DNA of 64,000 bases, from NCBI RefSeq assembly GCF_013315695.1, contig NZ_CP054353.1; one strand, given 5' to 3'. Below, piece after piece: positions 36,602-39,489 of the stretch; positions within the stretch are counted from its first letter, which is position 1, and every line of letters begins with the position of its first letter. Both the position numbers and the translations under genes were made by a program. The notes under the pieces were generated by a model. The model was given only the letters and a program-made list of their open reading frames with translations, was not told the origin of the DNA and did no database searches. Source of the stretch: Escherichia coli (lineage in GTDB: Bacteria; Pseudomonadota; Gammaproteobacteria; Enterobacterales; Enterobacteriaceae).

Positions 36602-37795
36602 ATGAGAGCCTGCATTAATAATCAACAGATTCGCCACCATAACAAATGCGTGATTCTGGAACTGCTGTACCGGCAAAAGCGCGCCAATAAATCAACGCTG
36701 GCCCGGCTGGCGCAAATTTCGATTCCGGCGGTCAGTAATATTTTGCAGGAACTGGAAAGCGAAAAACGGGTGGTGAATATCGACGATGAAAGTCAGACGC
36801 GCGGACATAGTAGCGGTACATGGCTGATTGCGCCGGAAGGTGACTGGACGCTGTGTCTGAACGTGACGCCCACCAGCATTGAGTGTCAGGTCGCTAATGC
36901 CTGTTTAAGTCCGAAAGGCGAATTTGAGTATTTACAGATTGATGCACCGACGCCGCAGGCGCTGCTGTCCGAAATCGAAAAATGCTGGCATCGCCACCGT
37001 AAATTGTGGCCGGACCGTACCATCAACCTGGCGCTGGCAATCCACGGTCAGGTTGATCCGGTGACTGGCGTGTCGCAAACCATGCCGCAAGCGCCGTGGA
37101 CAACGCCGGTTGAGGTAAAGTATCTGCTGGAAGAGAAGCTCGGCATTCGGGTGATGGTCGATAATGACTGCGTGATGCTGGCGCTGGCGGAGAAATGGCA
37201 AAATAATTCGCAGGAACGGGATTTCTGCGTGATCAACGTTGATTACGGTATTGGCTCGTCGTTCGTGATTAACGAGCAAATTTATCGCGGCAGTTTGTAT
37301 GGTAGCGGACAGATTGGTCACACCATCGTTAATCCGGATGGTGTCGTCTGCGACTGCGGACGTTACGGCTGCCTGGAAACCGTCGCCTCGTTAAGCGCAT
37401 TAAAAAAACAGGCGCGGGTATGGCTAAAATCACAACCGGTTAATACTCAGCTTGATCCTGAAAAACTGACAACAGCGCAGTTAATCGCTGCCTGGCAGAG
37501 TGGAGAACCGTGGATCACCAGTTGGGTTGATCGCTCTGCCAACGCCATTGGTTTGAGTCTGTATAACTTCCTCAACATCCTCAATATTAATCAGATTTGG
37601 TTGTACGGTCGCAGTTGTGCCTTTGGTGAGAACTGGCTTAATACCATTATTCGCCAGACGGGATTTAACCCGTTCGACCGCGACGAAGGACCGAGCGTGA
37701 AAGCGACGCAAATTGGCTTTGGGCAATTAAGCCGCGCACAGCAGGTGCTGGGAATTGGCTATTTGTATGTTGAGGCGCAGTTACGGCAGATTTAA
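36602..37795 (+). CDS. yphH: ROK-family (NagC/XylR-like) transcriptional regulator YphH, 397 aa
   Basis: N-terminal helix-turn-helix; CDCGRYGCLE zinc motif typical of ROK proteins; divergent from yphG. Start at ATG 36602 (track ORF starts at GTG 36596). Confidence 0.88.
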   Translation: MRACINNQQIRHHNKCVILELLYRQKRANKSTLARLAQISIPAVSNILQELESEKRVVNIDDESQTRGHSSGTWLIAPEGDWTLCLNVTPTSIECQVANACLSPKGEFEYLQIDAPTPQALLSEIEKCWHRHRKLWPDRTINLALAIHGQVDPVTGVSQTMPQAPWTTPVEVKYLLEEKLGIRVMVDNDCVMLALAEKWQNNSQERDFCVINVDYGIGSSFVINEQIYRGSLYGSGQIGHTIVNPDGVVCDCGRYGCLETVASLSALKKQARVWLKSQPVNTQLDPEKLTTAQLIAAWQSGEPWITSWVDRSANAIGLSLYNFLNILNINQIWLYGRSCAFGENWLNTIIRQTGFNPFDRDEGPSVKATQIGFGQLSRAQQVLGIGYLYVEAQLRQI

Positions 37796-37972
37796 CTGAT
37801 ATAACAATGAGATGACTATTCTACAGAACTGCGATTGGTATATCCGCTGAAACATGATGCTGCAGATGTCACAAAGCAATTATCTGAAAAAATGAAGATT
37901 ATCAATTTTATCTTTAAAAAATCTTAGATGCCCGGTTATTATAAGTGATATTTTAAATACGGAATTATTGTT

Positions 37973-38170
37973 ATGGATAACCCTGGTCCTCTTGCTGCGC
38001 TTATGTTTGGCTTTGTTATGTTGGTGTTACTAATTTTCATGTTCGCCTTTTATTTCATTGGGCGCTCAATTAAAAATAAAATAATATCTACAATATTTAT
38101 TGTTCTCTCTACCATTTCATTAATATTGATAATTACATTTGCTTTTTTTATTATTCATATATTGCAATAA
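37973..38170 (+). CDS. Hypothetical small membrane protein, 65 aa, two predicted transmembrane helices
   Basis: ORF MDNPGPLAALMFGFVMLVLLIFMFAFYFIGRSIKNKIISTIFIVLSTISLILIITFAFFIIHILQ; AT-rich; followed by a hairpin terminator; weak ribosome-binding site. Confidence 0.35.
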   Translation: MDNPGPLAALMFGFVMLVLLIFMFAFYFIGRSIKNKIISTIFIVLSTISLILIITFAFFIIHILQ

Positions 38171-38187
38171 ACTTCACCTTTTTAGTC

Positions 38188-38216
38188 AAAAGGCTTCCCG
38201 AAGGAAGCCTTTTTTC
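38188..38216. terminator. Bidirectional intrinsic terminator between the small ORF and glyA
   Basis: AAGGCTTCC(cgaa)GGAAGCCTT flanked by A-run and T-run. Confidence 0.75.
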
Positions 38217-38235
38217 AACAGATTAACCGTTTCGC

Positions 38236-39489
38236 TTATGCGTAAACCGGATAACGTGCGCAGATGTCGAGAACTTTACCTTTGATGCGCTCGATAACAG
38301 CTTCATCATTGATGCTGTCCAGCACGTCACACATCCAGCCAGCCAGTTCTTTCGCTTCGGCTTCTTTAAAGCCACGACGGGTAATCGCCGGAGTACCTAC
38401 ACGAATACCGGAAGTCACAAATGGGCTCTTCGGATCGTTCGGTACGCTGTTTTTGTTGACAGTGATGTTAGCACGGCCCAGAGCGGCGTCTGCTTCTTTA
38501 CCGGTCAGGTTTTTATCAACCAGATCAACCAGGAACAGGTGGTTATCAGTACCGCCGGAAACCACTTTGTAGCCGCGTTCGAGGAACACTTCTACCATCG
38601 CTTTGGCGTTTTTCGCGACCTGCTGCTGGTAAGTTTTGAACTCAGGTTCCATCGCTTCTTTCAGAGCAACCGCTTTACCGGCGATTACGTGCATCAACGG
38701 ACCGCCCTGACCACCAGGGAAAACGGCAGAGTTCAGTTTTTTGTACAGCTCTTCGCTACCACCTTTCGCCAGGATCAGGCCGCCGCGCGGACCCGCCAGG
38801 GTTTTGTGAGTGGTGGTAGTAACAACGTGAGCATGAGGAACCGGGTTCGGGTAGACGCCAGCAGCAACCAGGCCCGCAACGTGCGCCATATCAACGAACA
38901 GGTAAGCACCGATGCTGTCAGCGATTTCACGCATTTTCGCCCAGTCCACCACGCCGGAATATGCAGAGAAGCCACCGATAATCATTTTCGGTTTGTGTTC
39001 TTTGGCTTGTTTTTCCAGATCGGCGTAGTCGATATGACCGGTAGCATCGATACCGTAAGGAACGATGTTGTACAGTTTACCGGAGAAGTTAACCGGAGAA
39101 CCGTGAGTCAGGTGACCGCCATGCGCCAGATTCATACCCAGAACGGTATCGCCTGGTTCCAGCAACGCAGTGTACACCGCAAAGTTAGCCTGGGAGCCGG
39201 AGTGCGGCTGGACGTTAGCGTAGTCAGCGCCGAACAGTTCTTTCGCACGATCGATCGCCAGTTGTTCAACGATATCAACATACTCGCAACCGCCGTAGTA
39301 GCGTTTGCCCGGATAACCTTCAGCATATTTGTTGGTCAGCTGAGAACCCTGAGCCTGCATTACGCGCGGGCTGGTGTAGTTTTCGGAGGCGATCAGTTCG
39401 ATGTGCTCTTCCTGACGTACTTTTTCCTGCTCCATAGCCTGCCACAGTTCGGCATCATAATCGGCAATGTTCATTTCACGCTTTAACAT
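38236..39489 (-). CDS. glyA: Serine hydroxymethyltransferase, 417 aa
   Basis: ATG at 39489 gives [16 protein letters not shown]...; PLP-lysine motif [14 protein letters not shown]. Confidence 0.96.

Follow-up and report, generated by a model that had tools for sequence, protein, structure and literature searches.

Several described classes of small bacterial membrane protein come into question when a short hydrophobic open reading frame (ORF) is met in an intergenic spacer. Immunity proteins to membrane-targeting toxins are ∼50 to 100 amino acids long, fold as hairpin or multi-helix proteins in the inner membrane, are encoded by accessory genes of low GC content, are often orphans, and often lie in effector-immunity islets. 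The type I toxins Hok, Ldr, TisB, Ibs, ShoB, DinQ, and ZorO are small, hydrophobic, intergenic, and strain variable, with a single transmembrane (TM) helix and usually ≤60 amino acids, and come with a co-conserved antisense RNA and structured untranslated regions (UTRs). Proteins like AcrZ, MgtS, KdpF, and CydX modulate larger membrane proteins; their genes usually belong to the core genome and usually lie together with the gene of the partner or close to it. Class II holins combine two TM helices with a charged C-terminal tail and are encoded beside an endolysin in a lysis cassette, and the "moron" inserts of prophages are lone AT-rich foreign genes between host genes, with their own promoter-like site and a downstream terminator. 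Here, we compare with these systems an ORF found in Escherichia coli.

The ORF lies on the plus strand at positions 37973 to 38170 of the window (the whole stretch of E. coli DNA that was analyzed, 64,000 nucleotides [nt]), starts with ATG, and encodes 65 amino acids; position, length, and translation, as quoted in a preliminary description of this DNA, were all identical when the sequence was read again. It is located between yphH (positions 36602 to 37795, plus strand), which encodes a ROK family protein, and the convergent gene glyA (positions 38236 to 39489, minus strand), which encodes serine hydroxymethyltransferase, both as annotated in RefSeq for strain AF3, which has the identical sequence. 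The gene is single copy in the window. The AT-richness and atypical codon usage that had been pointed out for it were confirmed: the ORF has a GC content of 28.3% and the surrounding insert (see below) one of 29%, in comparison to 51 to 53% in yphH and glyA; 6 of the 14 isoleucine codons are ATA, a codon that occurs neither in glyA nor in yphH, and CTG accounts for none of the 9 leucine codons. The coding strand is 46% T, and at second codon positions the share of T rises to 61%. The ORF had also been described as unlisted, which holds for the RefSeq (PGAP) annotation of strains AF3 and MSB1_4I and does not hold for GenBank, where the protein is found as a "hypothetical protein." The exact protein is encoded on 889 draft-assembly contigs (for example, GenBank EEW8204776.1), invariably arranged as yphH-ORF-glyA.

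Alignment with a typical strain and the GC profile, which shows a sharp trough of 26 to 33% between about positions 37800 and 38200, delimited an AT-rich insert of ∼378 bp (26 to 33% GC) at positions 37806 to 38183, with approximate borders. At least three alleles of the yphH-glyA spacer occur in E. coli, of 63, 197, and 440 nt, the last being that of the window. In a survey of 60 genomes, drawn at even spacing from 5,425 matching E. coli genomes, 37 had the 63-nt spacer and 21 had the 197-nt spacer, including K-12 MG1655 and BL21. The insert is positioned in a spacer of the 63-nt type, between the yphH stop codon and the terminator hairpin, and displaces only a junction there. The extra DNA in the K-12 spacer consists of REP/BIME sequence and lies between the hairpin and glyA, and no DNA related to the insert was found in the 197-nt spacer of K-12 MG1655, so that the locus is absent from K-12. 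The K-12-type REP/BIME sequence yielded subthreshold Rfam matches to naRNA4 and ES036 (L014:740-870; L013:760-858), and in some RefSeq records, PGAP has placed a partial "hypothetical protein" pseudogene on it.

A sensitive blastn search found the insert in 5 of 5,426 complete E. coli genomes, always at the same site; thus, >99.9% of these genomes, K-12 among them, are without it. It is intact in AF3 (100% identical to the window) and in MSB1_4I. The low-GC trough, the codon usage, and the occurrence in 5 of 5,426 genomes at a single site mark the insert as foreign, and we conclude that it is a horizontally acquired, lineage-specific islet. The preliminary description had proposed a gene overlooked in K-12; this framing has to be dropped, since the K-12 gene list is empty here because K-12 has no such DNA. 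Conservation of the frame in Escherichia and Shigella, the check suggested there, does not apply as it was phrased, these relatives being without the region. At the ends of the insert, we detected neither terminal repeats, direct or inverted, nor a signature of an integron attC-like site or of target duplication, and blastn against plasmids returned just one match, a 34-nt chance match to Borreliella. The upstream 177 bp of the insert contain broken frames only, the longest of 38 amino acids, which is too short for a protein search.

Judged on this single sequence, the ORF rises only marginally above chance, and the caution of the preliminary description, which had left open whether it is a gene, was justified. 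ATG-initiated ORFs of at least 65 codons were found in 225 of 5,000 (4.5%) dinucleotide-preserving shuffles of the insert, and in 8% of the shuffles if any start codon was allowed. The GRAVY value of the translation is 1.72, against a mean of 1.0 for the shuffles (P of about 0.01), with T-rich DNA inherently yielding hydrophobic peptides.

Comparison of v1, as we term the protein encoded in the window, with 5.8 billion proteins returned near-identical E. coli copies only. A first relative, v2, was found by tblastn on plasmid records, as an ORF without annotation in an E. coli replicon of 542 kb; its translation is MSNPGPLAALVYGFILIVLLSVSLILYSIGRTIKNEIGKGIAYALTGILLILSLLVGAFILTLLT. The two proteins are 48% identical across all 65 residues, without gaps and with start and stop codons in register. 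The v2 protein corresponds to WP_001531630.1 (UniProt A0A1U9U2G3), a 65-amino-acid "hypothetical protein" of E. coli O25b:H4-ST131 and relatives, and is present at ≥99% identity in 511 of the 5,426 complete genomes (in comparison to 5 for v1), ST131 strains included. It shares with v1 the length, the NPGPLAAL start, the IGRxIKN loop, and the two-helix plan and differs from it in its locus, a higher GC content (35%), and a better Shine-Dalgarno sequence. Its gene lies in an island beside ychF that contains, in this order, genes for DUF2339 and DUF3999 proteins, v2 itself, an IS91 remnant abutting v2, and an integrase gene. About 180 nt upstream from v2, an unannotated ORF of 59 amino acids was seen (L010:3642-3821, plus strand), whose translation has two hydrophobic segments and a loop of the sequence KNGRH; it overlaps an opposite-strand RefSeq "hypothetical protein" of 45 amino acids (WP_001296004.1; L010:3705-3842, minus strand) and has no detectable similarity to the family of v1 and v2.

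A third variant, v3 (P0024), came from a profile search and is encoded in a Salmonella islet; it is 46% identical to v1, and its gene has ∼83% DNA identity to that of v2. All three proteins are exactly 65 amino acids long and align without gaps, with starts and stops in register. The alignment score lies at z = 20 relative to 5,000 composition-matched shuffles and still at z = 11 if the N-terminal motif is left out. Two motifs were found in the family, an N-terminal M[D/S]NPGPLAAL and a Y-x-IGR[S/T][I/V]KN loop between two hydrophobic helices, and the invariant residues include M1, N3, G5 to L10, G13, F14, L19, L20, Y27, I29 to R31, N35, L45, L50 to L52, I60, and L64. Nei-Gojobori dN/dS ratios were 0.36 (v1/v2), 0.37 (v1/v3), and 0.50 (v2/v3), with Fisher P values of 0.001, 0.003, and 0.054, respectively, estimates that come from three sequence types only and few substitutions. 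Between v1 and either v2 or v3, dS is about 1.5, and neither an indel nor a stop codon has arisen; differences among the variants are most frequent at the third codon position, followed by the first and then the second. The conserved N-terminal motif is encoded by synonymous codons in the different variants (for example, CCT/CCA, GGT/GGC, and CTT/TTA), and the constraint therefore acts on the protein. DNA similarity among the three loci extends from 6 to 8 nt upstream from the ATG to the stop codon, the flanks are unalignable, and no neighboring gene is common to all three. From the gapless homologues of the same length and the purifying selection, the 65-codon ORF is very probably a genuine protein-coding gene, which bears out the possibility of a real small membrane protein that had been raised for it. 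On the sequences compared, v1 belongs to a very small orphan family of three sequence types. Both v1 and the ST131 homologue were already known to databases as hypothetical proteins, and v1 is a divergent member of its family and one of the lineage-specific small hydrophobic ORFans.

Searches with all three variants against Pfam, NCBIfam, PHROGs, and PADLOC returned noise only (E values above 0.04, under the curated cutoffs). A sequence profile search of PDB gave a single match (E = 0.039), to a synthetic TM construct, and Foldseek found nothing in PDB below E = 1, with generic hairpins only. No relatives were detected in 50,697 phage records, IMG/VR, or PHROGs or in 100,044 species-representative genomes, and we found no paper mentioning v1 or its family. 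A profile search of 1.84 billion cluster representatives returned the family itself and one further sequence, a surface-type repeat protein of 1,662 amino acids (P0031), which we rejected as a homologue since its score adds up over a 16-fold repeat of "SANPTPLTATISGFVL." A JGI record names v2 a Tic20-like protein; this assignment was likewise rejected, as none of the three variants matched the model at E values of up to 10. Membership in the class II holins or other phage lysis proteins was rejected as well, because the proteins end in 1 to 3 uncharged C-terminal residues and have no phage context or match; v1 thus has neither the charged tail nor the endolysin context of these holins. Like the prophage morons, v1 is a lone AT-rich foreign gene that is flanked by host genes, has its own promoter-like site, and is followed by a terminator; it differs from them in having no phage context or match and in that the terminator comes from the host spacer and not from the insert.

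The two transmembrane helices noted for this ORF at the outset are supported by two kinds of prediction. Hydropathy places hydrophobic segments at about residues 7 to 29 and 40 to 64, and AlphaFold2, run on the small alignment, predicts helices at residues 5 to 32 and 36 to 64 that are packed as a hairpin (mean pLDDT of 89.4). Except for D2 and H62, all charged residues of v1 are found in the loop between the helices (R31, K34, and K36), which has a net charge of +2 to +4. On these models, v1 is likely to be a hairpin protein of the inner membrane. Positively charged loops are cytoplasmic according to the positive-inside rule, by which the IGR[S/T][I/V]KN loop is predicted to face the cytoplasm and the M[D/S]NPGPLAAL N terminus and the C terminus, both very short, are predicted to face the periplasm.

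The signals for expression around the ORF are weak. A putative Shine-Dalgarno-like GGA (positions 37961 to 37963, plus strand) was read 9 nt upstream from the ATG; in v2 and v3, the GGA is 5 nt upstream, and the signal of v1 is the weakest of the three. A sigma-70 promoter-like sequence, TTTAAA-18-TATTAT (positions 37913 to 37942, plus strand), matches the consensus at 9 of 12 positions, and 3 such matches were observed against 2.4 expected from shuffles, that is, no excess. The best match of the region, TTGATA-17-TATTAT (10 of 12; positions 38126 to 38154, plus strand), is located within the 3′ end of the ORF and faces the terminator; it could yield an RNA of ∼50 nt but, in DNA this rich in AT, probably arose by chance. 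An ATATTT(T) sequence occurs 24 to 28 nt upstream from the ATG in each of the three variants (positions 37945 to 37972; L010:3972-4000; L012:143-174), and the upstream regions of v1 and v2 both contain ATAAG-N1-2-ATATTTT-N-AA. As far as the sequences go, the shared ATATTT(T), a motif too short for statistics, may be a common −10-like element with a very short leader.

Downstream, a bidirectional intrinsic terminator hairpin shared with glyA spans positions 38188 to 38213. It consists of core-genome sequence that is also found in strains free of the insert, with two arms of 11 nt each (positions 38188 to 38198 and 38203 to 38213) that are 100% complementary, a 4-nt loop, A4 on the 5′ side and T6 on the 3′ side, and a ΔG of −15.7 kcal/mol (z = −3.96). 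A simple pattern-based terminator scanner missed this hairpin, which had been recognized in the preliminary description and was borne out here, the ORF stop codon lying 17 nt upstream from the 11-bp stem. An Rfam scan of positions 37600 to 38400 returned subthreshold terminator-like matches only, and the predicted RNA folding of the insert is no better than that of shuffles (z = −0.44). Read-through from yphH into the ORF is plausible because there is no terminator between the two. Transcripts of the ORF would originate either at yphH, by read-through, or at a weak promoter belonging to the ORF itself and would end at the terminator shared with glyA. DNA of such low GC content is typically bound by H-NS in E. 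coli. Given the weak Shine-Dalgarno sequence, the six ATA codons, the lack of CTG codons, and a GC content of 28%, of the kind silenced by H-NS, expression of v1 in E. coli is probably low at best.

Among the five complete genomes with the insert, three carry IS1 on the start codon of the ORF or have lost the start codon next to IS1. In AF14 and OZ546911, the duplicated 9-bp IS1 target TTGTTATGG (positions 37968 to 37976) lies on the start codon, and in MS 21-1, an IS1-linked deletion has removed positions 37973 to 37979, the first 7 nt of the ORF, together with the 3′ end of yphH (IS1 junctions at L002:3052-4000 for AF14 and L003:3230-4000 for MS 21-1; window site, positions 37968 to 37979). 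The presence of IS1 at the start in three of five complete genomes implies that the gene is dispensable. These events may reflect an AT-rich target preference of IS1 or an effect on the ORF, which could be either activated or inactivated. The start site of the ORF is also where about 35 draft contigs, roughly 42 kb in length, come to an end. Copies within the lineage are mostly identical and clonal, so that nothing shows ongoing selection within it. Two genomes, GCA_902849715.1 (L008:2965-3100) and GCA_902849735.1 (L009:3037-3150), have 6 to 7 substitutions each, nearly all in the insert; in the latter, there are two substitutions just past the insert at the contig end and a premature stop at codon 50. 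No substitutions were seen in the compared part of yphH in either genome or in glyA of the former, and the divergent copies are probably low-coverage assembly errors in AT-rich DNA.

The genomic context of v3 bears on the possible function of the family. In a sister Salmonella contig, thiM is followed by genes for Hcp (PF05638), for an effector with a Tlde1 domain (PF10908; 49.7 bits against a cutoff of 30.1), and for a 190-amino-acid protein with a signal peptide and then by rcnB and the genes of a fimbrial operon. Tlde1 and Tldi1 have been described as effector and immunity protein of a T6SS, the latter with a sec signal (PMC9638812). In the sister strain, the 190-amino-acid gene follows Tlde1, in the place of an immunity gene, and Hcp, Tlde1, and this presumed immunity gene form an orphan module between thiM and rcnB. 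In v3 strains, the Hcp-Tlde1 segment of roughly 2.5 kb is replaced by one of ∼780 bp (L015:7140-8573 against L012:1-761 plus L019:1-52), which contains v3 and a broken second small hydrophobic TM ORF (L012:555-749, in pieces 555-668 and 687-749). Homology resumes 8 nt upstream from the 190-amino-acid gene, which is kept in v3 strains with the v3 segment directly upstream. An effector gene upstream from v3 was considered and rejected: the two contigs of the v3 strain have a 24-nt overlap and lead straight into the thiM flank, which leaves no place for such a gene. Hence, v3 is a stand-alone gene next to a presumed orphan immunity gene, which is a lead towards an orphan immunity role and not a demonstration of one. 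Location in an effector-immunity islet applies to v3 and not to v1 or v2, so that the link to the T6SS exists in one of three contexts, and no toxin gene adjoins v1, v2, or v3 at any of the three loci.

In being products of small, low-GC, accessory genes for predicted membrane hairpins, with v3 in an effector-immunity islet, the three variants resemble the immunity proteins of class II microcins and of pore-forming CDI (CdiI); they differ from these in having neither sequence or profile similarity to them nor an adjoining cognate toxin. Sequence, profile, and structure searches revealed no similarity of the variants to any immunity, toxin, or defense family. Our leading guess for the function of v1, tentative and weakly held, is that of a stand-alone protective protein of the inner membrane, similar to an orphan immunity protein, that might counter a membrane-targeting toxin of competitors. 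Since nothing but the ORF is conserved between the loci and no partner gene travels along with it, the protein may act alone in the membrane, a step to which we attach low confidence. The explanation that we prefer overall, at a probability of about 50%, is that an AT-rich islet of ∼378 bp entered one E. coli lineage by horizontal transfer, downstream from the yphH stop codon and ahead of the terminator shared with glyA, bringing a real gene for a predicted membrane hairpin that could be transcribed by read-through or from its own promoter and act alone, possibly in an immunity-like role.

The alternative that survives best, doubtful as we consider it, accepts the family as real and regards the v1 copy as inert, carried along as what is left, silenced or in decay, of a larger foreign island and having no function in this lineage today. 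Composition and codon usage (28% GC and 6 ATA codons) are the most extreme of the three variants, the Shine-Dalgarno sequence is the weakest, the start is hit by IS1 or deleted in three of the five complete genomes and possibly in the roughly 35 draft contigs, the upstream 177 bp contain broken frames only, and the lineage is clonal, with no sign of ongoing selection, all of which would suit such a remnant. However, the ORF is intact on 889 contigs, and full length and both motifs have been retained across a dS of about 1.5 from v2 and v3.

Two further alternatives, both improbable in our view, also take the gene to be real and assign it other roles. In the first, the locus would be a type I toxin-antitoxin-like module of a membrane-depolarizing toxin and an antisense RNA, and the islet would serve as a selfish cassette for addiction or persistence. 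The small, very hydrophobic protein, the intergenic, strain-variable, AT-rich locus beside a terminator, and the gene standing alone with no protein partner recall the toxins named above, and the IS1 hits on the start in part of the lineage could reflect counterselection. Against this stand the two TM helices and 65 amino acids instead of one helix with a polar tail, and the conservation of nothing outside the ORF and 6 to 8 nt upstream from it, be it UTR structure, antisense gene, or promoter, although an antisense RNA contained entirely in the ORF would be compatible with this pattern; moreover, there is no Rfam match, no recurrent antisense promoter, and a single copy in the window, and the N-terminal motif is kept as amino acids and not as nucleotides. 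We regard this role as less likely than the immunity-like one. In the second, v1 would bind to a larger membrane protein and modulate it as a small accessory or regulatory subunit, by analogy to AcrZ, MgtS, KdpF, and CydX. Its size and the near absence of extramembrane mass fit this class, and conserved positions with small or aromatic residues (G13, F14, Y27, and L50-I51-L52) could form a helix-packing face, but the loci of v1 to v3 have no common neighbor that could serve as the encoded partner, and the gene is accessory and foreign instead of belonging to the core genome. The last alternative, a chance ORF in an AT-rich spacer, would agree with the 4.5 to 8% of insert shuffles that give equal length, the "TM-like" peptides of T-rich DNA, the weak Shine-Dalgarno sequence, and the missing PGAP call but is effectively refuted by homologues under coding constraint, which are gapless, of the same length, and at two unrelated loci of 35 to 40% GC (z = 20; dN/dS of <1), with homology that stops exactly at the ORF borders.

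Taken together, an ORF that is marginal by sequence statistics alone (P of about 0.05) very probably turns out to be a real gene, one that recurs in hundreds of clinical E. coli assemblies and is passed over by the current annotation pipeline. The K-12 gene list misses nothing between yphH and glyA, which corrects the premise of the preliminary description. The ORF is now tied to a protein found in about 9% of complete E. coli genomes (ST131 type) and to a Salmonella T6SS effector-immunity islet, and an uncharacterized family of small membrane proteins thereby has three natural variants. As a wider proposal, speculative and on balance unlikely, the 65-amino-acid hairpins could form a novel class of protective membrane proteins that work alone, pass between Escherichia and Salmonella as single genes with homology confined to the ORF, and confer orphan immunity to a membrane-targeting T6SS, CDI, or bacteriocin toxin, with one member fixed in pandemic ST131. 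If the immunity reading is not true, v1 would be another lineage-specific small ORFan; if it is, the family would represent a minimal, single-gene defense against membrane-active toxins.
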